Below are positions 2,084 to 59,824 of a stretch of 64,000 nucleotides of DNA, in pieces (within the stretch, counting starts at the first letter, position 1; the number at the start of each line of letters is the position of its first letter). Source of the DNA: Candidatus Iainarchaeum sp. (GTDB lineage: Archaea; Iainarchaeota; Iainarchaeia; Iainarchaeales; 1-14-0-10-31-34); the NCBI GenBank assembly GCA_017609625.1, contig JAFCDN010000002.1:2785-66784 (forward strand). Direction: 5' to 3'. The translations under genes were made by a program, and so were the position numbers. Under the pieces are notes generated by a model. That model saw only the letters and a list, made by a program, of their open reading frames with translations, had not been told where the DNA came from and did no database searches.

Positions 2084-2545
2084 ATGCAATTTGAATATTT
2101 AGAGCACACAGCAGATTTAAAGTTTCGAGCTTTTGGAGAGACAAAAAAAGAGTTAATAGAAAACTCTGGAAAAGCTTTATGCAATGCAATAATTGATTCT
2201 GGCAGTGTGGAAGAAAAAGGAAAAGGAATTATTGCAGTGCAGGCAGAAAACTTTGAACAGGTTTTGTTTGATTTTTTAAAAGAAGTTTTGTTTCAGATTG
2301 ACACGCAAGAAATTATTTTTTCAGAGTTCAAAGTAACTGAATTAAAAGAAGCTGAACCGCCTTTTTCAGAAAAAGGCAGGTTGCCAAAAACCAAAAAAGG
2401 GATTTTTCTAAAAGTTGAAGCATCAGGAGAAAAAATAAATTTAGATAAACATGAAGTGAAAACAGAAATCAAAGCAATAACAAAACATGATTTTAAAGTA
2501 GAAAAAAAAGAAAAATGGATTGCAGAAGTTTTAGTTGATGTGTGA
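2084..2545 (+). CDS. Archease (RtcB activator) carrying a palindromic-repeat-encoded insert
   Basis: MQFEYLEHTADLKFRAFG... archease N-terminal signature; RtcB lies 600 bp downstream; insert EAEPPFSEKGRLPKTKKG is encoded by the repeat at 2355-2392. Confidence 0.85.
   Translation: MQFEYLEHTADLKFRAFGETKKELIENSGKALCNAIIDSGSVEEKGKGIIAVQAENFEQVLFDFLKEVLFQIDTQEIIFSEFKVTELKEAEPPFSEKGRLPKTKKGIFLKVEASGEKINLDKHEVKTEIKAITKHDFKVEKKEKWIAEVLVDV
2355..2392. repeat. Type-B palindromic repeat (GCCTTTTTCAGAAAAAGGC + AGGTTGCCAAAAACC) in frame inside the archease CDS
   Basis: Near-copies at 17468-17503, 24983-25018, 26076-26114 and 26303-26340. Confidence 0.7.
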
Positions 2546-2586
2546 AAAACAAGCAAAATCAATACATATTTAAATCAAAATCCATA

Positions 2587-2604
2587 CAAATACTATAGTA
2601 TTTG
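2587..2604. promoter_or_regulatory. Perfect 9-bp-arm inverted repeat CAAATACTA|TAGTATTTG 24 bp upstream of the RHH antitoxin gene; candidate autoregulatory operator
   Basis: Palindrome read directly from the sequence; its position relative to the toxin-antitoxin start is typical of a RHH operator. Confidence 0.4.
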
Positions 2605-2627
2605 GTTTTGTAAGGTGTGGTGATCAT

Positions 2628-2870
2628 ATGAATGTAATTTTAAGAGGAAAAACTAAAGAAATCCTTGAAGACATGGTTGAAGACGGCTATGCAAACACAC
2701 AGTCTGAAGCAGTAAGATTAGCTATAATAAATTTTGGGGAAGACCACTTTAACGAAGAAGAAATGGTTAACAGAAAACTAGATTTAATAGATGAACAGAT
2801 AAAGAAAGGAAAAAGAAAACTGCTTAAAGCAGACAAAGGTCTTGGAAAATATGCAAAGTATTTGAAGTAG
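2628..2870 (+). CDS. Ribbon-helix-helix (CopG-like) antitoxin
   Basis: 80 aa; N-terminal beta-strand NVILRGKTKEIL followed by a helix with SEAVRLAIINF; immediately upstream of a RelE-like gene. Confidence 0.55.
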   Translation: MNVILRGKTKEILEDMVEDGYANTQSEAVRLAIINFGEDHFNEEEMVNRKLDLIDEQIKKGKRKLLKADKGLGKYAKYLK

Positions 2871-2875
2871 TTTAT

Positions 2876-3136
2876 ATGTATTCAGAAGCGTTTGATGAGG
2901 AATGGCCAAAATATTTTGACAACCTTGAAGAACAAATAAAAGGAAGGACTGCTAAAAAAATAAAAAAGATTCTGGAAAATCCACAAAAAAGACATCTTAA
3001 AAAAGCAAAATATTTTGTAGACGAAATAGGGCAAAACAGAATTGTTTACAGAGTTTTTGAAGAAGAAAAACAAGTAAGATTTTATTTTGTGGGGAATCAT
3101 AAAGAATACAAAAAATGGTACAAAAAGCTCTTTTAA
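2876..3136 (+). CDS. RelE/ParE-family toxin
   Basis: 86 aa; ...IGQNRIVYRVFEEEKQVRFYFVGNHKEYKK matches the RelE/ParE C-terminal core (R..Y R....v.il.ig.Hk.vY). Confidence 0.65.
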   Translation: MYSEAFDEEWPKYFDNLEEQIKGRTAKKIKKILENPQKRHLKKAKYFVDEIGQNRIVYRVFEEEKQVRFYFVGNHKEYKKWYKKLF

Positions 3137-3173
3137 AAAAATCATTTGTATTATATCCTATTGAAGGCATTTT

Positions 3174-4598
3174 ATGAAGCAAATAAGTAAAGGCATTTGG
3201 GAAATTCCAAAACAAGGAAAAATGCTAGTTCCAGGAAGAGTATATGGAACAAAAAAAATAGTTGAAGAAATCGAAGACAATGCAATAACACAATTAACTA
3301 ATGTAGCTGAACTTCCAGGGATACAAAAATATTCTATTGCCATGCCTGATGCTCACCAAGGATATGGAATGATAATCGGCGGGGTAGCAGCATTTGATGC
3401 AGAAAATGGAATAATTACTCCTGGCTCGATTGGTTTTGATGTAAACTGTGGGATCAGACTAGTAAAAACAAATTTAACAGAAAAAGATGTTAAAGGAAAA
3501 GAAAAAGAAATTTTAAATGAATTGTTTAATCAGGTCCCAGCTGGCTTGGGTTCAAAAGGGCAGTTCAGAGCTAATAAAGAACAGCTACAAGAGGTAATGC
3601 TAAAAGGTTCAGCTTGGGCAATAGAAAACGGTTTTGGATGGAAAGAAGATTTAGAGAAAACAGAAGAAAACGGAAAAATGCAGGAAGCTGATCCGAAAAA
3701 TGTTTCAGAAAAAGCAATTCAAAGAGGGTTGCTGCAGTTAGGTTCTTTAGGTTCAGGAAACCATTTTTTAGAGATACAAAAAATTGAAGAAATCTTTGAT
3801 GAAAAAACTGCAAAAGAGTTTGGTCTGCAGAAAGGAAAATTATGTTTAATGATTCACTGTGGAAGCAGAGGCTTTGGACATCAGATTGCATCAGATTATC
3901 TTGATACAATGGAAAAAGCAATGAAAAAATATGGAATAAAAGTGAGTGACAAGCAGTTAGCGTGTGCTCCGATTAATTCAGAAGAAGGAAAAAAATATTT
4001 CAGTGCAATGGCTTGTGCAGTAAACTATGCTTTTGCAAACAGGCAGATGATTTTGCACTGGACAAGAAAAAGCTTTGAAAAAGTTTTAGGAAAAACAGCA
4101 GAAGAAATGCAGCTGCATTTAGTTTATGATGTAGCACATAATATTGCAAAATTTGAAGAACACGAAATTGACGGCAAAAAAATGAAAGTTTTAGTGCACA
4201 GAAAAGGAGCTACAAGGGCTTTTCCTGCAGGAAAAAAAGAAAATCCTTTATCTTATATGAAAACAGGCCATCCTGCATTAATTCCTGGTTCAATGGGGAC
4301 TGCTTCCTGGGTTGTAGTTGGAACAGAAAAAGGACTGGAAGAAACTTTTGGTTCTGTCGCGCACGGAGCAGGCAGGGTTATGAGCAGATCAAAGGCAATT
4401 AAAACCAAAAGAGGAGAACAAGTGCAAAAAGAACTTGAACTGCAGGGAAAATTTGTTAAATCCAGAAGCCCAAAAACTCTGGCAGAAGAAATGCCTGAAG
4501 CATACAAAGACGTGGATGAAGTGATAAAATCTTTAGAGATTTCAGGGATAGCAAAAAAGGTTGCAAGAATGATTCCGATTGGAGTAGTAAAAGGTTAG
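3174..4598 (+). CDS. rtcB: tRNA-splicing ligase RtcB
   Basis: 474 aa; AMPDAHQGYGMIIGGV, GIDVNCGIRL, HRKGATRAFP and GSMGTASWVV motifs of RtcB. Confidence 0.95.
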   Translation: MKQISKGIWEIPKQGKMLVPGRVYGTKKIVEEIEDNAITQLTNVAELPGIQKYSIAMPDAHQGYGMIIGGVAAFDAENGIITPGSIGFDVNCGIRLVKTNLTEKDVKGKEKEILNELFNQVPAGLGSKGQFRANKEQLQEVMLKGSAWAIENGFGWKEDLEKTEENGKMQEADPKNVSEKAIQRGLLQLGSLGSGNHFLEIQKIEEIFDEKTAKEFGLQKGKLCLMIHCGSRGFGHQIASDYLDTMEKAMKKYGIKVSDKQLACAPINSEEGKKYFSAMACAVNYAFANRQMILHWTRKSFEKVLGKTAEEMQLHLVYDVAHNIAKFEEHEIDGKKMKVLVHRKGATRAFPAGKKENPLSYMKTGHPALIPGSMGTASWVVVGTEKGLEETFGSVAHGAGRVMSRSKAIKTKRGEQVQKELELQGKFVKSRSPKTLAEEMPEAYKDVDEVIKSLEISGIAKKVARMIPIGVVKG

Positions 4599-5017
4599 TT
4601 TGAACCATCCTTTCTTCTTTTTCTCTTTTTTTCCTCAATTTTCATACCAGCTAAAAGTTCGTCTGCAGTTATCCTCATTTCTCTAAATTGTTTCTTTAGA
4701 ATTGCTGTCCTTGCACCGAGTTCATTTGTGCTATGAGAAGCTGCTTGAAGTTTTGAAAACGCATCAAAAATTGGCAACTGGCTTTCTGCATACTGTTCAG
4801 CTTGTTTTTTATTGCTTCCTAAATTCCTGGAATGCCTGTAAAATATTCTTGCTGCTTGTTCTCTTTCTAAACCTAAACGAACAAGTGCCACTGCTAAAGG
4901 CAGACTTTTGTCGCCTGCTTTTTCAAGATAATACTCTCCAATAGGTCTTTTTCTGGCGGGTTTTTTGTTAACAGGTTTCCTTTTTAATCGTCCGAATATA
5001 CTGCGCTTCTTAGCCAT
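4595..5017 (-). CDS. Hypothetical basic protein, Arg-rich and GC-richer than its surroundings
   Basis: 140 aa ORF convergent with rtcB; R/K-rich termini; possible HTH at SLPLAVALVRLGLEREQAARIF; composition is atypical for this Lys-biased genome. Confidence 0.4.
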   Translation of the reverse strand: MAKKRSIFGRLKRKPVNKKPARKRPIGEYYLEKAGDKSLPLAVALVRLGLEREQAARIFYRHSRNLGSNKKQAEQYAESQLPIFDAFSKLQAASHSTNELGARTAILKKQFREMRITADELLAGMKIEEKKRKRRKDGSN

Positions 5018-16776: not shown

Positions 16777-17313
16777 ATGAAAGGACAGGAAAAAATAACT
16801 GAAGTTCCGGAAGGAACAAAAGCAGAAGTCCAAGGGAACACAGTAAAAATCAGCGGAAAGCTGGGAACACTAGAAAGAGATTTTACCCACAACAAAGTGA
16901 AAATAGAAATACAGGAAAACAAAATAAAAATTTCAACAAAAGAAGTTTCAAAAAGAACAAAAAAAAGGATAAACACAGTTAACGCACACATAAAAAATAT
17001 GATTATAGGAGTAACAAAAGGTTATACTTACAAAATGCAGATTGTTTTCTCACACTTTCCAATAAATGCGACAGTAAAAGGAGATACAGTTGAAATAGTA
17101 AACTTTGTGGGAGAAAAAAACCCAAGAAAATCAAAAATAGTCGGACAGACAAAAGTTGAAATAAAAGGAAAAGAAATTACAATAACAGGAAACAACAAAG
17201 AAGACGTTGGACAGACAACAGCAAATATAGAAAAAGCAACAAAAATAAAAAACAGGGATTCAAGGGTTTTTCAGGACGGAATATATTTAACAGGAAAAGC
17301 GGTGAGCGAATAA
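16777..17313 (+). CDS. rpl6: 50S ribosomal protein L6 (uL6)
   Basis: ITEVPEGTKAEVQGNTVKISGKLGTLERDF...; ATG at 16777 is preceded by AAGGTG; the ORF track extends to 16756. Confidence 0.85.
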   Translation: MKGQEKITEVPEGTKAEVQGNTVKISGKLGTLERDFTHNKVKIEIQENKIKISTKEVSKRTKKRINTVNAHIKNMIIGVTKGYTYKMQIVFSHFPINATVKGDTVEIVNFVGEKNPRKSKIVGQTKVEIKGKEITITGNNKEDVGQTTANIEKATKIKNRDSRVFQDGIYLTGKAVSE

Positions 17314-17954
17314 TGCCAGAAGAAACAAAAAAACAAACAGAAGGAAAAAAAGAATCACCAAAAGAAAAGAAAAAAGAGATACTTACAGAAAAAGAGGAAG
17401 ATTTAGCCAAAGAAGAAAAGAAAACCACAAAAAAAAATGATAAAAAAGAAACCAAACCAACAACTGAAAAACCTGCTTTTGAGAAAAGCCAGGTTGCCAA
17501 AACCAAAGAAGAAAAAAAGCCTGCTGAGAAACCCAAACCAAAAAAACCAGAGAAGCCAAAAGCAGTGAACAAAATAGAAAAAACAAAAGAACAGAAAAAA
17601 TTGCAGGAAAAAATAAAAGAAAAAAAAGTCCCAGTGATAAGGGGAAACTTTGGAAAAGCATGGTTAAGAAGAAAAGCAATAAAAAAATGGCAGAAATGGA
17701 GAAAACCAAGAGGAATAGATTTTAGATTAAAAAAAGAGAACGGAGCAAAACCAAAAATGGGTTTCAGATCTCCAGCAGAAATAAGAGGACTGCACCCCTC
17801 AGGCCTGCAGGAAGTTTATGTGAGAAATTTAAATGAACTGAAAGAAATAAAAGAAAAAAATAAAGTAATAAGATTAAACGGAAATATCGGAAAGAAAAAG
17901 AAAAAAGAAATACTAAAAAAAGCCAAAGAAAAAAAAATGAGGATACTAAACTAA
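17313..17954 (+). CDS. rpl32e: 50S ribosomal protein L32e (eL32) with a ~100-aa K/E-rich N-terminal extension containing a palindromic repeat
   Basis: Core GKAWLRRKAIKKWQKWRKPRGIDFRLKK...GFRSPAEIRGLHPSGLQEVYV; the extension includes KPAFEKSQVAKTKEEKK, encoded by the repeat at 17468-17503. Confidence 0.85.
   Translation: MPEETKKQTEGKKESPKEKKKEILTEKEEDLAKEEKKTTKKNDKKETKPTTEKPAFEKSQVAKTKEEKKPAEKPKPKKPEKPKAVNKIEKTKEQKKLQEKIKEKKVPVIRGNFGKAWLRRKAIKKWQKWRKPRGIDFRLKKENGAKPKMGFRSPAEIRGLHPSGLQEVYVRNLNELKEIKEKNKVIRLNGNIGKKKKKEILKKAKEKKMRILN
17468..17503. repeat. Type-B palindromic repeat variant (AAACCTGCTTTTGAGAAAAGCCAGGTTGCCAAAACC) in frame inside rpl32e
   Basis: Differs by 2 nt from the copy in rps4 at 24983-25018. 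Confidence 0.7.
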
Positions 17955-22492: not shown

Positions 22493-22590
22493 GTGATTTT
22501 ATGACACAACACACCTTTTTTGAAAAAAGCTGTACCAAAAACGTTTTCGCTAAAGCGAAAACTTGCTTTCTTTTCTTTGGGCAACCTACA

Positions 22591-24187: not shown

Positions 24188-25048
24188 ATGGGAGACCCAA
24201 AAAAAACAAAAAAGAAATACATCAGGCCAAGAAAACCTTGGGACAGAACCAGGCTAGATGAAGAAAGAAAACTAAAAGAAACTTATGGACTGAAAAACAA
24301 AAAAGAGCTTTGGGGATTGGAACAAATACTAAAAAGCAAGAGACAAAACGCAAGAAAACTGCTTGCATTAGAACTGGAAAGAAGGCTTAAAAGAGAAAAA
24401 GAATTAATGGACAGCCTGAAAAAAATAGGTTTAGTAAAAGAAAATGCTTCACTGGATGACATTTTAAGTTTAAGAATAGAAGAGTTTCTTGAAAGAAGGC
24501 TTCAGACAATAGTCTGGAGAAAAGGACTTGCAAACACAGTAAAACAGGCAAGACAATTCATTGTTCACGGACATATAGCAATAAACGGAAAAAAAGTAAC
24601 AAAACCCTCATATATTGTTAAAACAGAAGAAGAAGGAAAAATAAATTACTACAAAAAACCTCTCAAACTGAAACAGGAGAAACCTAAAACAAAAAAAGAC
24701 TTGAAAAAAGAATTCAAAAAAGCAGAATCAACAGAAGGGGCTGAAAAGCAATTAAAAACAGAAGGAAAAAATAAAGATTTAGTTAAAGAAAAAACTGAAA
24801 CAAAAAAAGAATCTCCTAAAGCAGAAAAAGAAACCCCAAAAACTAAAAAAAAGAAAGAAGAAAAACCAAAAAAAGAAAAAACTGAAGATAAAAAAACAGA
24901 AACAAAAGAAAAGGAAGAAAAAGAACCTCAAAAAACTGAAGAGAAACCAGCAGAAAAATCAGATGAAAAACCAAAAACAGAAAAACCAGCTTTTGAGAAA
25001 AGCCGGGTTGCCAAAACCAAAGAGAAAGAACAAGGTGAAGAAAAATGA
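24188..25048 (+). CDS. rps4: 30S ribosomal protein S4 (uS4) with a ~130-aa K/E-rich C-terminal extension ending in a palindromic-repeat-encoded peptide
   Basis: Core ...[34 protein letters not shown]...; the tail ends ...[24 protein letters not shown]. Confidence 0.9.
24983..25018. repeat. Type-B palindromic repeat variant in frame at the 3' end of rps4
   Basis: AAACCAGCTTTTGAGAAAAGCCGGGTTGCCAAAACC; encodes [12 protein letters not shown]. Confidence 0.7.
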
Positions 25049-25436: not shown

Positions 25437-26009
25437 ATGGAAATGAAAAAATTGGAGAAAAAAGACAGAAAAATAAGGTTTTCTCTAAAAGGGGTTACCC
25501 CTGCATTTGTTAATGCAATAAGAAGAATGATTACAACAAACGTAAAAACATTTGCAGTAGACAATGTCAATATTTACGAAAACACTTCAGTAATGTTCAA
25601 CGAAATGTTTGCACACAGATTAGGAATGCTTCCAATCCAGACAGACACAAAAACATACAAGAAAAAAGAAAAAGTTACTTTAATGGCGGAAAAAGAAGGA
25701 CCATGCACAGTGTATTCAAAAGACATTAAAAGCACTGATCCCAAAATAGAAGTAATAGACAAAAAAATTCCGATTGTAAAACTCGGAAAAAATCAGAAAA
25801 TAAAAATAGAAATGGAAGCAACAGTTGATTCCGGAAAAAGACACAGCAAATGGACACCAGGAATAATGACCTACAACTACAACAAGGACACATTTACAGT
25901 TAACATGGAATCTTTTGGAGGAATGGAACCAAAAGAAATACTTGAACAGGCAACAGCGGAGCTGATAATAAAAACAGAGGAGCTGAAAAAGGCTTTAAGC
26001 AAGGTTTAA
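25437..26009 (+). CDS. rpoD: DNA-directed RNA polymerase subunit D (Rpo3)
   Basis: 190 aa; ...GVTPAFVNAIRRMITTNVKTFAVDNVNIYENTSVMFNEMFAHRLGMLPI...; canonical position after S11. Confidence 0.8.
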   Translation: MEMKKLEKKDRKIRFSLKGVTPAFVNAIRRMITTNVKTFAVDNVNIYENTSVMFNEMFAHRLGMLPIQTDTKTYKKKEKVTLMAEKEGPCTVYSKDIKSTDPKIEVIDKKIPIVKLGKNQKIKIEMEATVDSGKRHSKWTPGIMTYNYNKDTFTVNMESFGGMEPKEILEQATAELIIKTEELKKALSKV

Positions 26010-26010
26010 A

Positions 26011-26225
26011 GCAGGGGTACCCAAGCGGTCAACGGGGCAGGACTTAAGAAACCTTTTTCAGAAAAAGTTTCATCAAAACTGCCTTTTTCACAAAAAGGCA
26101 AGCTGCCAAAAACGTTTTCGTTTCACGAAAACACGCAAAGCGTTTTTTGGTAAATCTTTTTTGAAAAAAGATTTTGGGAGATCCTGTGGCTTAGTGCCTT
26201 CGAGAGTTCGAATCTCTCCTCCTGC
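26011..26225 (+). tRNA. tRNA-Leu(UAA), class II with a long variable arm, containing a 132-nt intron at the canonical 37/38 position (26049-26180)
   Basis: Acceptor GCAGGGG pairs with CTCCTGC, discriminator A; U8, A14, G18G19 present; anticodon stem CAGGA/TCCTG; loop CTTAAG|A with anticodon TAA; 15-nt variable arm TGGCTTAGTGCCTTC; T-arm GAGAG-TTCGAAT-CTCTC; no encoded CCA. Confidence 0.8.
26049..26180 (+). other. tRNA-Leu intron composed largely of palindromic repeat units
   Basis: Contains AAACCTTTTTCAGAAAAAGTTT, a type-B unit (26076-26114), a CGTTTTCG...CGAAAAC hairpin and AAATCTTTTTTGAAAAAAGATTT. Confidence 0.65.
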
Positions 26226-26302
26226 ATAAACTTTTTAGAAAAAAGTTTAATCAAAAAAAAACCTTTTTAGAAAAAAGGTTGAACAAAAACAAAGTTTAAT
26301 CA

Positions 26303-26340
26303 AAACCGCCTTTTTAGAAAAAAGGCAGGTTGCCAAAAAA
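26303..26340. repeat. Type-B palindromic repeat, intergenic copy, inside a cluster of three hairpin units at 26229-26345
   Basis: AAACTTTTTAGAAAAAAGTTT, AACCTTTTTAGAAAAAAGGTT and CCGCCTTTTTAGAAAAAAGGCAGGTTGCCAAAAAA occur in series. Confidence 0.7.
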
Positions 26341-26357
26341 TAAAAAAACGTGAAAAT

Positions 26358-26714
26358 ATGAAAAGAACAGGGCCAACAAAAGAAAAAACAAAAAAAATTA
26401 TTTCCCTCTTAAAAAAAGAAGGAAAAAAGAAAAAAATCTGGAAAGAAATAGCTAAACAAGTTTCTGCTCCAAGAAGAAAAAGAGCCAGCATTAATTTATG
26501 GCAATTAGAAAAGCTCTCAGAAAAATTCCAGAACAAAACATTTGTTGTTGCAGGAAAAGTTCTTGGAAAAGGAGAAATAAACAAAACAGTGAACATTGCA
26601 GCATTAGAGTTTTCAGAAAAAGCAGGAAAAAAAATAAAAGAAAAAAATGGAAAAACATTAAGCCTGGAAGAAGCAGTAAAGATTAACTCAAAAGAATTAA
26701 TGATAGTAAAATAA
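26358..26714 (+). CDS. rpl18e: 50S ribosomal protein L18e (eL18)
   Basis: 118 aa; ...NKTFVVAGKVLGKGEINKTVNIAALEFSEKAGKKI... Confidence 0.8.
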   Translation: MKRTGPTKEKTKKIISLLKKEGKKKKIWKEIAKQVSAPRRKRASINLWQLEKLSEKFQNKTFVVAGKVLGKGEINKTVNIAALEFSEKAGKKIKEKNGKTLSLEEAVKINSKELMIVK

Positions 26715-27885: not shown

Positions 27886-28593
27886 ATGGAAAAAGAAACA
27901 ACAACCGAAACAGAAAGATACCTGAAAACAGGAGCACATATCGGAACAAAATACAAAACAGGAAATATGCTGAAATATATTTACAAAAGCAGAGAAGACG
28001 GATTAAAAGTAATGGATATTAAGACACTAGATGAAAGAATAAACATTGCTGCGAAATTTATTTCAAAATATGAAAAAGAAAAAGTAGTTGTTGTTTCAAG
28101 AAAACTATATGGAAAAACCCCAATAAAAGAATTTGGAAAAGCAACCGGAACAAAAGCAGTTCACGGAAGGTTTGTTCCAGGATCATTCACAAACCCTGAA
28201 GGAAAAAAATTTATTGAACTGGCTTTATTGATTGTAACAGAACCAGATACAGATTTTCAGGCAATAAAAGAAGCAAAAAAGTTGAAAGTTCCTATTATTG
28301 CATTATGCTCAACAAACAACTCAACAAAAGACGTTGATTTAGTTATTCCAGTGAACAATAAAGGAAGAAAAAGCCTTGCTTTAGTTTACTGGACGCTTGC
28401 AAAAATAATTTTACTTGAAAGAGAAGAAATAAAAAACGAAAAAGAATTCAAAAAAACAACTGAAGACTTTGAATACAAAATAAAGGAAGGCAAAGAAGAA
28501 CTAATGAAAGAAAGAATGGCAATGGAAAGCAAAAGAAAAGGCAAAGGAAGAGGCAGAAGAGGCCCTCCAATTAAAAGGCCTATGAGGCGCTAA
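27886..28593 (+). CDS. rps2: 30S ribosomal protein S2 (uS2)
   Basis: 235 aa; ...YLKTGAHIGTKYKTGNMLKYIYKSREDGLKVMDIKTLDERI... Confidence 0.9.
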   Translation: MEKETTTETERYLKTGAHIGTKYKTGNMLKYIYKSREDGLKVMDIKTLDERINIAAKFISKYEKEKVVVVSRKLYGKTPIKEFGKATGTKAVHGRFVPGSFTNPEGKKFIELALLIVTEPDTDFQAIKEAKKLKVPIIALCSTNNSTKDVDLVIPVNNKGRKSLALVYWTLAKIILLEREEIKNEKEFKKTTEDFEYKIKEGKEELMKERMAMESKRKGKGRGRRGPPIKRPMRR

Positions 28594-28595
28594 AC

Positions 28596-28690
28596 CTTTT
28601 TAAAAAAAAGGTTTAACAAAAACAAACTTTTAGAAAAAGTTTGATCAAAAAAACCTTTTAAAAAAAGTTTCACTAAAAAGATTAATGATA
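28596..28690. repeat. Intergenic array of three palindromic hairpin units (AAACCTTTTTAAAAAAAAGGTTT, AAACTTTTAGAAAAAGTTTG, AAACCTTTTAAAAAAAGTTTC)
   Basis: Same family as the 10953-10990, 13922-13950 and 26229-26345 copies. Confidence 0.65.
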
Positions 28691-33354: not shown

Positions 33355-34302
33355 TTAGTTCTTTTTCTTTCTTCTTTTGTTTGGCCATCTTTTTTGTTTC
33401 TTTTTGGTTTTTAATTGGACTTCTCTCCCCCTGTTTCTTCTGTTAGTTCTCACTGAAGGATAAGCTTCTTTCTGTTGCATTAACGCTAAAGGGTCTTTGA
33501 AAACAAAATGAAATTTTCCGTTTTTGTCAACAGATTCTACAATAAGATTATGAAAAGCAGGAGTGCTAAAAGCAGGGCCTGTAAAATCAAACATAAAATT
33601 TGAGTTTAAAAATCTTTTTCTAGCATTATTTTTAAATTCTGAACTTGCCGTCTCTAAGTCTTCTATTGCCTGAGTGGCAATTGATTCAAGAGCTCTTGCA
33701 AGTTGTTGGTTAAAAAGTTGTTTAAGACTGTCTGATTTTAAGGGAGGGTATAATTTTTGTTTTTCAATAAATCTTTGACAGCGCGCATCAGCGAACTTTC
33801 CTCTTTTTGAGGCCCCTTGCCTAAGATAACGAATTAGCTCTAAAGCATTTGGTTTATCCAAAAATTCTTCAATAATAAAATTTTCTGCAGCACTGGCTAT
33901 ACTTGTGTTTACCCTATAGATTTTAACAGGTCTCAAAAAATAGTCAGTTATTCTGATTCCTGACCTGTCTCTAGCATAAATTCTCTGAAACGCGCCTTTT
34001 CTTAAAAGTCTGGAATAGATTCTCCAGATGCCTCTTAAAGCAGAAGATTCCCCTAAAGTCATTTGCCTGGCAAGCCCTGGATCATCTGCACGGAAAGCAT
34101 CATGCTTGTGTTTTTTCCATGTAGCAGAAGGCGTTTTTTTAACAAACTTTTCTCCATTAATTGTAACCAATTCTATTGCCTTCTCAATTGGAATTAACAA
34201 ACCATGACTTCGCATTTCTATTCTTTTTCTTCCTGCAAACCATTTTGAATGAAACCTCTGCTTTTTCTTCAAAGATTTTCTCGCAGCTTTTCTTCTGGAC
34301 AT
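33355..34302 (-). CDS. Hypothetical Arg-rich basic protein, antisense between gltX and rpl7ae; compositionally atypical
   Basis: 315 aa; N-terminus MSRRKAARKSLKKKQRFH..., C-terminus ...RRNRGREVQLKTKKKQKRWPNKRRKKKN; Arg-rich in a Lys-biased genome; no recognisable family. Confidence 0.45.
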   Translation of the reverse strand: MSRRKAARKSLKKKQRFHSKWFAGRKRIEMRSHGLLIPIEKAIELVTINGEKFVKKTPSATWKKHKHDAFRADDPGLARQMTLGESSALRGIWRIYSRLLRKGAFQRIYARDRSGIRITDYFLRPVKIYRVNTSIASAAENFIIEEFLDKPNALELIRYLRQGASKRGKFADARCQRFIEKQKLYPPLKSDSLKQLFNQQLARALESIATQAIEDLETASSEFKNNARKRFLNSNFMFDFTGPAFSTPAFHNLIVESVDKNGKFHFVFKDPLALMQQKEAYPSVRTNRRNRGREVQLKTKKKQKRWPNKRRKKKN

Positions 34303-35005: not shown

Positions 35006-35197
35006 ATGAAAGTGAACTGTAGCTTTTGTGGCAAAGAAATCAAAAAAGGAACAGGAACAATGTTTGTAAAAAAAGACGGCACTACATTTAATTTTTGTTC
35101 TTCCAAATGCGAAAAAAATTTACTAAAACTCAAAAGAAACCCAAGAAAAATTAAATGGACAAAAGAATACCACAAAATAAAAAAAGCAAAAAAATAA
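35006..35197 (+). CDS. rpl24e: 50S ribosomal protein L24e (eL24)
   Basis: 63 aa; [34 protein letters not shown]. Confidence 0.9.
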
Positions 35198-35211
35198 TAA
35201 AAGGTGATAAA

Positions 35212-35775
35212 ATGGAAAGAACCTTAATTTTAATAAAACACGACGGAGTTCAAAGAGGATTAGTAGGAGAAATAATTAAAAGATTTGAACAAAAAGGATT
35301 AAAGATTGCAGGAATGAAAATGATTCAGGCAACAGAAGAAATGACAAAAAAACATTATGTAATAACACCAGAGTGGACTAAAAAACTTGGAGATAATACA
35401 AGAAAGTCAGCAGAAAAAAAAGGAAAAAAAGTAACAGAAACAGACGAAGAAATAGCAAAAAGAATTCACTCGTGGAACTCAGAGTATTTAATGGAAGGGC
35501 CATTAATAGCAATAGTGTTTGAAGGATACCATGCAATAGAAATCGGAAGAAAATCAATTGGAAGCACTGAAGCAAGAAAAGCAGATATAGGAACAATAAG
35601 AGGAGACTATTCAGTTGACTCATATGAAATAGCAGAAGACAAAAAAAGGTCTGTAAGAAATTTAATCCATGGTTCAGAAGATTCAATACAAGCAGACAAT
35701 GAAATCAATTTGTGGTTTACAAAAAAAGAACTGTATGACTACAAGAAAAAAGACTGGGAAATAATTTTTAAGTGA
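35212..35775 (+). CDS. ndk: Nucleoside diphosphate kinase
   Basis: MERTLILIKHDGVQRGLVGEIIKRFEQKGLKIAGMKM...NLIHGSED; ATG preceded by GGTGATAAA; the ORF track extends upstream to 35155. Confidence 0.85.
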   Translation: MERTLILIKHDGVQRGLVGEIIKRFEQKGLKIAGMKMIQATEEMTKKHYVITPEWTKKLGDNTRKSAEKKGKKVTETDEEIAKRIHSWNSEYLMEGPLIAIVFEGYHAIEIGRKSIGSTEARKADIGTIRGDYSVDSYEIAEDKKRSVRNLIHGSEDSIQADNEINLWFTKKELYDYKKKDWEIIFK

Positions 35776-51415: not shown

Positions 51416-52021
51416 GTGATTAATTTGGTTGAGCATAAACAAGAAAAAGAAGCAGAAAAGCATAAAGACAAGAAAAAACAAAAAAAAGACCCTAAAGATG
51501 TAAAAATTGAAGAACTGACTGAATTAGTTAAAAGAGTTCAGGCAGAATTTGAGAATTTCAAGAAAAGAGAAGAAAAAGACAGGAAACAATTTGTAGAGTA
51601 CAGCAATGCAGAATTGATTTCCAATTTGCTTCCTGTTTTAGATTCAGTCCAAGCAGCCGAAAATACAGAAGAAGCAAAAAAATTAATTCAACCAATAAAA
51701 ACACAATTAACACAAGTATTAGAAAAATATGGATTAAAAGAAATAGAAGCTCTAGGAAAAAAATTCAATCCAGAATTGCATGACTGTTTAATGCAAGAAA
51801 ATGATTCAGAAAAAGAAAATAATATTGTATTAGAAGAACTGCAAAAAGGATATACTTTGAAAGACAAAGTTTTAAGGCATGCAAGAGTGAAAATCAACAG
51901 AAAAAAAACAGAAGAAAAACAACCTTTTTTAGAAAAAAAGGTTGCAACTCAAACCAAAGGTTTGAGTGCACAACAAAATCAAGATTTTGTTAGTGAACAA
52001 AAAAAAGGAGAAGAAAAATAA
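51416..52021 (+). CDS. grpE: Nucleotide exchange factor GrpE with a palindromic-repeat-encoded C-terminal tail
   Basis: ...LLPVLDSVQAA...GKKFNPELHDCLMQE...; the tail KKTEEKQPFLEKKVATQTKGLSAQQNQDFVSEQKK is encoded by repeat copy B. Confidence 0.8.
   Translation: MINLVEHKQEKEAEKHKDKKKQKKDPKDVKIEELTELVKRVQAEFENFKKREEKDRKQFVEYSNAELISNLLPVLDSVQAAENTEEAKKLIQPIKTQLTQVLEKYGLKEIEALGKKFNPELHDCLMQENDSEKENNIVLEELQKGYTLKDKVLRHARVKINRKKTEEKQPFLEKKVATQTKGLSAQQNQDFVSEQKKGEEK
51911..52005. repeat. ~95-nt composite three-hairpin repeat element, copy B, in frame at the grpE 3' end
   Basis: Differs from 14791-14885 by 1 nt (AAAGG vs AAAAG). Confidence 0.8.
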
Positions 52022-52218
52022 TAGTAAAAAATTAAATTCAAAATTTTTAGGAGATAAATTTTATGAATATAGAAGTTCAAGAAGAATTTGAGGAAGAAGA
52101 AATTCCAGAGATTCCAGAAGATGCAAAACCAGAACCTTTTTCAGAAAAAGGTTCAGAAAAAAACCAGAAAAAATTAAGGTTTGAGATTTATGCAAATTAA
52201 AAAAAAAGGTGATAAAAA

Positions 52219-56009: not shown

Positions 56010-56537
56010 ATGGGAAGCACAAAAAAACTTTTACTGGTATTGCTTGCAGCAGTGGTTTTACTGTATTTTGCTTATACAAACGGTTTCTTTAATTCAATGG
56101 AATTTGAATATGGATTAAGCAAAGTAAAAGAAATAGATGAAGAATTCGGATTAGATGAACAAAAATTAGTTCCAGATGAAAAAACTGAATTAGAAGAATA
56201 TAATGAAAAAATTTTGGAACTGAAAAAAGAGTTCAGCGGGAAAAACCAGAATGATACAACCCAAGCACTAAATTATTTGCTTGATGCAAAAAAAGAACTG
56301 GCATTATTGCAGATGAATATTATTTCATTACATGAAAGCACTGACTGTGAAGAGCAATTAGAATTGGCAGGAATAATTGCAGAAAGCGCAACTTCAGTAA
56401 AAGACTCAATGGAAAACTATTTAGATTTTGATTTTTCTGAAGAAACAAAAGAATGGAATGAAAATGCATTAGATACAAGCATTTCATTGATTGCTTCTTT
56501 TACAGAATTAGGGCAAAGCTTAGAGCAAAGCTGTTAA
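56010..56537 (+). CDS. Hypothetical N-terminally anchored/secreted acidic protein
   Basis: 175 aa; signal/anchor MGSTKKLLLVLLAAVVLLYFAYT. Confidence 0.35.
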   Translation: MGSTKKLLLVLLAAVVLLYFAYTNGFFNSMEFEYGLSKVKEIDEEFGLDEQKLVPDEKTELEEYNEKILELKKEFSGKNQNDTTQALNYLLDAKKELALLQMNIISLHESTDCEEQLELAGIIAESATSVKDSMENYLDFDFSEETKEWNENALDTSISLIASFTELGQSLEQSC

Positions 56538-59209: not shown

Positions 59210-59824
59210 ATGCCTAAAGTTACTGCTAAAAAAAGAAATGCACTAAGAGTTTTTCCTGACAAAAAAGTTAGCAGAAAATATATAGCAGAGTTTGAAGAAA
59301 GTTGGCAGGATGGAAATAGAGCTAAAAGAAAATTGAGTGGCTACCCTACTTTTTGGAAGAGGGAGGTCATTAGATTTTCTCCTTCAACTGTTGTAACTGT
59401 AAGAAAATTTAGATCTACTGAAAGTGCAATAGCTTACATGAAAAATCAAAGAATAATTGAAAGAAAAATGGCAAAAAGTAATCTAAAACACGCAGTTATT
59501 CAGCCAATACAGTTTTTTGGAAGAAGTGGAAAAAACGTTTTTGAAAGAGTCTATACAGGGGTTGATTTTCATTCTTTCAAAGGAAAAAGCGGGCATAATT
59601 ACCCTGCACTTAAAAGAAGATTGAAAAGAAAAAGAATTGATTTAGATAAGCAAAGAGATTACGAAAAAATAGAAAAAATAGTAAATGACACAAGGGGAGA
59701 ATTATATGGTGTTGTGAGTAGTTCTTCTTCTAATGTGCTTATTCTTGATGTTGACCCAAAAGGAAAGAAAGTGTTAATAGGAGTAATTGACCATGAAAGC
59801 CCTCCGTCAATTAGAGAAGAATAA
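59210..59824 (+). CDS. Hypothetical protein (basic, Arg-containing)
   Basis: 204 aa; no recognisable motif. Confidence 0.35.
   Translation: MPKVTAKKRNALRVFPDKKVSRKYIAEFEESWQDGNRAKRKLSGYPTFWKREVIRFSPSTVVTVRKFRSTESAIAYMKNQRIIERKMAKSNLKHAVIQPIQFFGRSGKNVFERVYTGVDFHSFKGKSGHNYPALKRRLKRKRIDLDKQRDYEKIEKIVNDTRGELYGVVSSSSSNVLILDVDPKGKKVLIGVIDHESPPSIREE

Follow-up and report, generated by a model that had tools for sequence, protein, structure and literature searches.

An archaeal tRNA-Leu(UAA) gene with a predicted endonuclease-type intron apparently enlarged by dispersed hairpin modules

Bulge-helix-bulge (BHB) introns have been described in Haloferax volcanii for tRNA-Trp (103 nt), tRNA-Met (75 nt) and tRNA-Gln (31 nt) (PMC7714728), and DPANN archaea often have tRNA genes that are disrupted (PMC5829648). 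The origin and size change of archaeal tRNA introns are still debated, the best-known case being the Thermoproteales, in which tRNA introns were gained as whole units by "intron transposition" (Fujishima et al. 2010, as summarised in PMC4090602). Rickettsia palindromic elements (RPEs) are short palindromic repeats that occur between genes and in frame in unrelated proteins (PMC10969869, PMC1779305). Here we describe a tRNA-Leu(UAA) gene at positions 26011-26226 of a 64,000-nt stretch of Candidatus Iainarchaeum sp. contig JAFCDN010000002.1 (GC content 32.7%), the whole of which is called the window below. In our preferred reading, to which we give a probability of roughly 75%, this is a functional tRNA-Leu(UAA) of a low-GC DPANN archaeon near the Iainarchaeota/Diapherotrites, with an endonuclease-type intron that has been enlarged by accretion of hairpin modules.

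The first exon (26011-26048(+)) comprises tRNA positions 1-37 and the second (26181-26226(+)) positions 38-73, and CCA is not encoded. The joined exons are recognised by ARAGORN as a class II tRNA-Leu(taa) of 84 nt, which agrees with the complete class II tRNA that the initial annotation had folded by eye across the two exons. The spliced molecule has a 7-bp acceptor stem, a long variable arm, a GTTCGAAT T-loop and A73, together with U8, A14, the GG of the D-loop and U33. The gene ends with the discriminator A at 26226 and not at 26225, where the initial annotation had placed its end. In the whole 64-kb window no tRNA was found by ARAGORN with default settings or by Rfam at its gathering score, because the insertion is long; this failure of the default finders is a limit of length and no evidence against the tRNA. 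The expectation that a tRNA model would score across the gene is hence true of the joined exons (ARAGORN) and of the orthologues (Rfam, see below), but not of the unspliced window in the default searches. The intron mode of ARAGORN does report a tRNA-Leu at 26011-26226, with an intron of 122 nt and a poor anticodon stem. This solution, with its 3' boundary 10 nt early and its G.U-rich stem, was rejected in favour of the boundary at 26180/26181, since the 132-nt intron restores the CAGGA/TCCTG stem and the conserved TCCTG strand matches all orthologues.

The proteins at the locus, assigned by Pfam, give the order S4-S11-RpoD-tRNA-L18e-L13-S9, followed by S2, and the stop codon of rpoD ends 1 nt before the tRNA, at the start of the gap between rpoD and the L18e gene. 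A search with RpoD yielded two genome loci and 80 metagenome loci, in which a tRNA-Leu directly 3' of rpoD is widespread: it is an intronless CAG, CAA or GAG isoacceptor in many lineages and UAA in others. The gene studied here occupies this rpoD-tRNALeu-rpl18e slot, which is conserved in archaea.

In eleven relatives tRNA-Leu(UAA) is interrupted at the same site by an intron of 24 to 114 nt, and other relatives have none; in two of the latter (L011 and L015) the tRNA is closely similar. The intron measures 114 nt in L003, the closest relative at this locus (RpoD 95% identical), 80 nt in L001, 78 nt in L005, 64 nt in L008, 35 nt in L006, 33 nt in each of L009 and L010, 27 nt in L014, 26 nt in L013 and 24 nt in L002; in the last two another intron lies upstream of this one. 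Identical exons are shared by the window, L003, L001 and L005, between which RpoD identity is 73-95%, while the introns of these four (132, 114, 80 and 78 nt) differ in sequence as well as in length. Nine distinct orthologue sequences, spliced or intronless, could be aligned without gaps and served for a test of the cloverleaf. All 207 of 207 cells (100%) were paired, 9 of the 23 cloverleaf pairs had changed on both sides in a compensatory manner, a level reached by 0 of 500 shuffles, and sliding the pairing partners lowered the pairing to 38-62%. The Rfam tRNA model gave 57.6 and 56 bits for the intronless orthologues and 44.6 bits for the orthologue with the 27-nt intron. Exon conservation, complete pairing, compensatory changes and Rfam scores together argue for a genuine gene that is maintained by selection and interrupted at 37/38 by a true intervening sequence.

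The second intron of the Iainarchaeum-like relatives L002 and L013 lies in the same tRNA-Leu(UAA) genes (approximately L002:797-928 and L013:3786-3917) and fits best at position 30/31, where its motif is perfect, with a GGCA/TGCC helix and an h' of GAAUUUU/AAAAUUC. It consists of a T/A hairpin followed by TGCCAA, the same build as the 38-nt module of the window described below. Both genes are wrongly labelled as tRNA-Ser by ARAGORN.

In the archaeal geometry of an intron at 37/38, nucleotides 32-35 pair with the four intron bases that precede the last two. One bulge is formed by 36, 37 and the first intron base, and the other by the last two intron bases and 38. In the window the central helix can be formed by CTTA at 26043-26046(+) and TGGG at 26175-26178(+), that is, by four base pairs (CUUA/UGGG: C32-G, U33.G, U34.G and A35-U), flanked by two identical bulges A,G|A at 26047-26049(+) and 26179-26181(+), with predicted cuts at 26048/26049 and 26180/26181. 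A BHB at exactly these junctions had been put forward as a check, and the 4-bp helix and the two bulges fit it. Helix h is the anticodon stem, with five base pairs plus a G.U pair. The trinucleotide AGA is repeated at both junctions, and cuts from 35/36 to 38/39 would give the same product; 37/38 is the only register compatible with a BHB. This register holds in all 11 orthologues, of which seven have a central helix of 4 bp and the other four one of 3 bp, and the intron strand of the helix varies (UGGG, UAGG, UAAG, GAAG) with pairing kept. The intron of 132 nt at the canonical position 37/38 (26049-26180(+)) in the initial annotation is borne out in position and length by the joined exons and by the orthologues.

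Two proteins of tRNA splicing are encoded upstream in the window, as had been noticed earlier: the RNA ligase RtcB (3174-4598(+), 474 aa, Pfam E 3e-178) and archease (2084-2545(+), Pfam E 1.5e-37), the best solved relative of the latter being PDB 4n2p. The open reading frame (ORF) at 4595-5017(-) is not archease. The stretch between the two genes (2546-3173) contains an RHH-like ORF (2628-2870) and an ORF of the ParE toxin family (about 2876-3136, PF05016, E 7e-5). In L083 archease and RtcB are only 4 nt apart, and the toxin-antitoxin pair thus looks like a recent insertion in the window. The RtcB of that relative (L083:2736-4331) diverges right after GFDINC and runs for more than 532 aa to the end of the contig, probably on account of an intein, which the RtcB of the window does not have.

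The interior of the intron is made of four hairpins and one mini-hairpin, and the palindromic make-up reported in the initial annotation is confirmed, in that these are modules of a dispersed repeat family. Hairpin 1 (26049-26070(+), AAACCTTTTTCAGAAAAAGTTT) is imperfect, with one C.T mismatch, and is followed by CATCAAAA; the introns of the window, L003, L001, L004 and L005 all start with a hairpin plus ATCAAAA. A 38-nt module (26076-26113(+)) comes next, consisting of the hairpin TGCCTTTTTCACAAAAAGGCA and the tail AGCTGCCAAAAAC. Hairpin 3 with the mini-hairpin (26114-26143(+)) has the sequence GTTTTCGTTTCACGAAAAC, with GTTTTCG/CGAAAAC arms, plus ACGCAAAGCGT, and a different hairpin is present in L003. 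Hairpin 4 (26152-26174(+), AAATCTTTTTTGAAAAAAGATTT) has a 10-bp T6/A6 stem, and about 17 nt of this hairpin are replaced by GC in L003. Three further T/A hairpins (26227-26249, 26260-26280 and 26303-26339) fill the tRNA trailer, which is also the spacer upstream of rpl18e (26227-26339(+)).

The motif CCTTTTTNNNAAAAAGG, with up to one mismatch, has nine matches in the window against 0.27 expected, and perfect hairpins of at least 8 bp with a T-run beside the loop number 15 in the window and 0 in shuffled sequence, five of the 15 lying within 26080-26326. The hairpins of the intron are thus not chance palindromes. That such hairpins litter the genome, as had been stated, is an exaggeration: their density is about 2.3 per 10 kb, and the tRNA-Leu locus is the densest cluster.

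When the 38-nt module was used as an nhmmer profile, the window yielded five copies, starting at 2355, 17469, 24983, 26076 and 26303 and all in the sense of transcription, and L003 yielded an orthologous copy. The four paralogues of the intron module (26076-26113) are 2355-2391, 26303-26339, 17469-17504 and 24983-25018. With the intron as blastn query, three significant matches were obtained, in the archease coding sequence (2359-2391, 91% over 33 nt, E 1e-5), in the trailer (26291-26339 against 26064-26112 of the intron, 86% over 49 nt, E 1e-5) and at 52133-52155 (96% over 23 nt). A two-hairpin composite between genes (22512-22566(+)) shares CCAAAAACGTTTTCG...CGAAAAC with the third intron hairpin in its part 22535-22566.

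Copies that are read in frame, the hallmark of RPEs, occur in a loop of archease, in the N-terminal extension of L32e and in the tails of S4, L24 and GrpE. The archease copy (2351-2392(+), 42 nt) encodes the peptide AEPPFSEKGRLPKT. Variant modules are found in the L32e N-terminal extension (17469-17504(+), PAFEKSQVAKT) and in the C-terminal tail of S4 (24983-25018(+), of the PAFEKS(Q/R)VAKT type, within a 56-nt stretch that is missing from L001). A longer segment of 121 nt with three hairpins occurs in the C-terminal tail of L24 (14781-14901(+)) and, 92% identical, in that of GrpE beyond the GrpE domain (51901-52021(+)). It lies outside the recognised domains of both proteins and translates as EEKQPFLEKKVATQTKxLSAQQNQDFVSEQK; a peptide search with the L24 tail gave no match, a negative result of little weight. 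The palindrome CCTTTTTCAGAAAAAGG encodes P-F-S-E-K-G at three places, namely archease, the tail of L24 and a small ORF that lies between grpE and dnaK.

This small ORF (52064-52189, 41 codons, MNIEVQEEFEEEEIPEIPEDAKPEPFSEKGSEKNQKKLRFEIYAN) is a putative gene in which a perfect hairpin copy is read as PFSEKG. L32e (17313-17954), S4 (24188-25048) and L24 (14368-15000) each extend beyond the Pfam domain by 95-130 aa of K/E-rich sequence, and the insertions and deletions of these proteins relative to L001 and L003 fall mostly in the K/E-rich tails. The Pfam match of the nucleoside diphosphate kinase (35155-35775, 206 aa) is broken in two, pointing to an in-frame insertion of about 50 aa. A separate hairpin family is seen downstream of S10, where three or four GC-rich stem-loops (576-680, 56% GC against 33% for the genome) could be a small RNA or another repeat; hairpins resembling this cluster replace the T/A hairpins in the tRNA trailer of L003. 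The possibility that the module is a mini-intron spliced from mRNAs was rejected: read directly from the sequence, its fold has helices of 4 and 8 bp separated by a 1-nt bulge and not two 3-nt bulges.

The turnover of the modules is evident from the comparison with L003, which is 91.7% identical over 3.7 kb. Every insertion or deletion of more than 8 nt is here a hairpin module: two lie in the second half of the intron, one is the whole trailer, which has T/A hairpins in the window and unrelated GC-rich hairpins in L003, and two are at the end of S2. Further module-sized differences, in the S4 tail and the S2 flank, distinguish the window from L001 (80% identical). The S2 stop codon lies inside a hairpin module (28587-28615) that is missing from L003, the protein ending in …KRPMRR* in the window and in …RRPARRETSF* in L003.

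The clearest case of a gain is in archease, where 42 nt (CTGAACCGCCTTTTTCAGAAAAAGGCAGGTTGCCAAAAACCA) are missing exactly from the closest orthologue, L083 (88% nucleotide identity), and are absent from all 14 aligned homologues (L083 and 13 others); the insert falls in a loop that the solved structure from Pyrococcus likewise lacks. Over its first 65 nt the intron is 97% identical between the window and L003, so that the intron copy is older than the separation of these two. The archease and trailer copies, which are more alike than either is to the intron copy, are younger. In the more distant relatives the intron has 24-35 nt, and in the close clade 78-132 nt. The length series, the gain and replacement of whole hairpins relative to L003 and the paralogues, including the 42-nt insertion in archease, directly support, by comparison, the suggestion in the initial annotation that palindromic elements have proliferated within the intron. 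Their "selfish" nature and mode of spread are inferred. There is no target-site duplication at the archease insertion, which is the one clean case; terminal inverted repeats were not seen, the elements being single hairpins with an asymmetric tail; and no transposase was noticed among the window ORFs that were scanned or read by eye. The module family thus appears dispersed and dynamic, while transposition in the strict sense is unproven. An origin of the module from the tRNA exon and the 30/31 intron of the sister lineages (GGCAGG...TGCCAAA) was also considered, the matches being too short for a test.

Taken together, the observations suggest the following scheme, of which the processing steps are taken from the known archaeal pathway (PMC4090602, PMC7714728). 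The tRNA would probably be co-transcribed with rpoD, and the precursor would fold into a BHB, with the 4-bp helix and the two A,G|A bulges next to the anticodon stem. This precursor would be trimmed by RNase P and by 3' processing, an endonuclease encoded outside the window would cut after 26048 and after 26180, and RtcB, with the help of archease, would ligate the exons, the intron probably being circularised. The intron itself would be ancestral to a wider clade at about 24-35 nt and would have grown to 132 nt by stepwise gain and replacement of T-run/A-run hairpins. Insertions may be tolerated there because splicing needs only the two ends of the intron. The modules would in turn belong to a dispersed family with fast turnover that fills spacers at gene ends and in-frame loops and tails of proteins, archease included.

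Several observations weigh against this scheme. The h' helix of the window has only two A-U pairs, followed by a 2x2 mismatch. The BHB conformer has an energy of -66.8 kcal/mol, 5.3 above the minimum-energy fold (-72.1 kcal/mol), and the BHB central helix has an ensemble probability of about 3% (0.03), a competing CUU/GAG pairing being favoured thermodynamically. None of the 25 window ORFs scanned with Pfam, a scan that was not exhaustive, has a tRNA_int_endo domain. Without a target-site duplication, terminal inverted repeats or a transposase, recombination or gene conversion between repeats could give the same pattern of module copies. Finally, actual splicing, the endonuclease and the spread of the modules are steps that we infer, and splicing itself is unproven.

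With respect to the folding energies, each of the 11 orthologues, L009 with its strict motif among them, has a fold that is more stable than the BHB, by 0.8-5.3 kcal/mol. In our reading the gap reflects how the energy model treats double bulges and is not evidence against splicing. Moreover, DPANN endonucleases often have loops that widen their specificity, and relaxed motifs are to be expected (PMC5829648). The lack of a visible splicing endonuclease was already stated in the initial annotation and holds for the 25 ORFs scanned. Two unannotated window ORFs gave no endonuclease match among PDB sequences, and three ORFs (33355-34302, 56010-56537 and 59210-59824) are without any match. The splicing endonuclease would then be encoded outside the window.

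A rather unlikely alternative is that the intron is genuine and that its hairpins are neither mobile nor selfish. They would have arisen by local slippage or template switching in an AT-rich genome and have been copied by gene conversion, and they may be kept as two-way transcription stops or as RNA 3'-end signals at gene ends. Most hairpin copies indeed lie directly after stop codons or between genes, the segments of the second intron half give the impression of replacement and not of plain insertion, and on direct reading the modules are overlapping palindromes of the form X-X'-X. The archease insertion without a target-site duplication and the failure to find a transposase in the window point the same way. 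Such a local origin is, however, difficult to reconcile with a specific 38-nt sequence at five unlinked sites and with a 121-nt sequence that occurs twice, 37 kb apart, in unrelated genes, and local slippage would hardly produce a clean gain of 42 nt within a conserved protein. A role as terminator is opposed by the copies within coding sequence and within a tRNA gene. Runs of at least five T are also common on the sense strands of coding sequence (288 in 59 kb), so that they are not strong stops in this organism. On the same count of 288 such runs, the idea that oligo-T tracts are a barrier to transcription of the intron was rejected.

A much more speculative reading is that the modules are mobile "gene-end" cassettes, each with a T-run stop and an A/T-rich start box, whose capture made a side-by-side split tRNA with trans-joined halves, the intron copy being the oldest datable one and possibly the source. 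If it were true, the locus would show a still existing transitional stage from intron-containing to split tRNA genes, but we consider it very improbable. The split gene as such, in which the T-run of hairpin 1 ends the transcript of the 5' half, the 'AAAGTTTCATCAAAA' box starts the 3' half and the two are joined in trans at the BHB as in Nanoarchaeum, has in our view a similarly small probability and is best regarded as a remote option. In split tRNAs of the Nanoarchaeum type the halves lie at separate loci, with their own promoters and a complementary leader and trailer. The resemblance of the first 64 nt of the intron to the trailer of the same gene and to the rpl18e upstream spacer, where a spacer box resembles the 'AAAGTTTCATCAAAA' box, would fit a split gene. 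The same is true of the hairpin plus ATCAAAA at the intron start, which is kept in five lineages while other spacers turn over, and of the 5' arm of hairpin 1, which can pair with the 3' arm of hairpin 4 to give a long h'-like helix. However, the halves are contiguous on one strand and 132 nt apart, so that read-through is the simplest expectation, and T-runs are frequent within genes. The TTTCATCA sequence matches poorly to the TTTAWAWA-type boxes upstream of other window genes, and the 24-35-nt introns of the relatives are too short for such signals. As a promoter, the 'ATCAAAA' box has only a weak resemblance to TATA-like boxes and was set aside, except as part of this low-probability alternative.

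Exceedingly improbable is a tRNA pseudogene made by repeat insertion, or a self-splicing group I intron as in bacterial tRNA-Leu(UAA): tRNA-Leu(UAA) is a classic host of group I introns and the locus is missed by standard tRNA finders, but the exons are invariant in four lineages, the stems have compensatory changes more widely and the pairing at the junctions is conserved, the position is 37/38 and not 34/35, 132 nt of simple hairpins contrast with a P1-P9 core of more than 200 nt, no intron family was found in Rfam at gathering score or at E up to 10 (an E-value scan of 25950-26360 gave only sub-threshold hairpin-rich bacterial small RNAs, best 28 bits against a cut-off of 80, which we treat as noise), and the host, an archaeon, encodes RtcB and archease.

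We therefore keep to the tRNA gene with an endonuclease-type intron enlarged by modules. As a kind, this is an ordinary endonuclease-type intron, since long tRNA introns at 37/38 and disrupted tRNA genes in DPANN archaea are already known. What is new is that the growth of one orthologous intron can be documented as accretion of identifiable repeat modules. The connection with an RPE-like family, by which proteins such as archease are remodelled as well, is likewise new. The orthologous intron can be traced from about 24-35 nt to 78, 80, 114 and 132 nt, which offers a concrete route of stepwise growth, with the intron as a tolerant landing site. The same module was inserted recently, and in frame, in archease, the cofactor of the tRNA ligase, and related modules form tails of ribosomal proteins and of GrpE. 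On the practical side, an essential tRNA gene that standard tRNA finders miss helps to explain "missing" tRNAs in DPANN genome bins.

Compared with the canonical archaeal BHB introns processed by EndA and RtcB, the intron of the window is similar in its position at 37/38, in the 4-bp helix with two 3-nt bulges, in the order of its length and in that RtcB and archease are encoded. It differs from the Haloferax introns in being longer, in having a body of dispersed modules and in its minimal h', which fits the relaxed motifs of DPANN archaea (PMC5829648). It also lacks the box C/D guide of the Haloferax tRNA-Trp intron: on direct reading no RUGAUGA or CUGA is present in 26049-26180, and no Rfam snoRNA match comes near threshold. 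The split and multi-intron tRNAs of DPANN archaea and Crenarchaeota share with our case the wider lineage and the processing enzymes (PMC4033280, PMC5829648), and in the sister lineages L002 and L013 this tRNA-Leu(UAA) has a second intron (30/31). In contrast to the split tRNAs of Nanoarchaeum, the gene of the window has one intron and halves that are contiguous on one strand, 132 nt apart, with no sign of separate transcription in the sequence.

With the Thermoproteales the likeness is that sequence-related intron material is found at several genomic places, which points to spread at the DNA level in Archaea. Whole introns with their splice motifs recur there across tRNA genes (PMC4090602), whereas here an old intron at a fixed site would take up small modules, and the other module copies within the 64 kb lie in spacers and coding sequence and not in other tRNAs. 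Compared with the RPEs, which are bacterial and 100-150 bp long, the main module of the window has 38-42 nt (one segment has 121 nt), an archaeal host and a copy in a tRNA intron, and no transposase partner or target-site duplication was found for it. It shares with RPEs, REP and terminator-like SPRITE elements the combination of intergenic and in-frame copies, the lineage-specific gains and the insertions in surface loops and tails (PMC10969869, PMC1779305). In archaea the family would correspond to the Rickettsia palindromic elements, which would bear on how protein extensions evolve in symbionts with small genomes.

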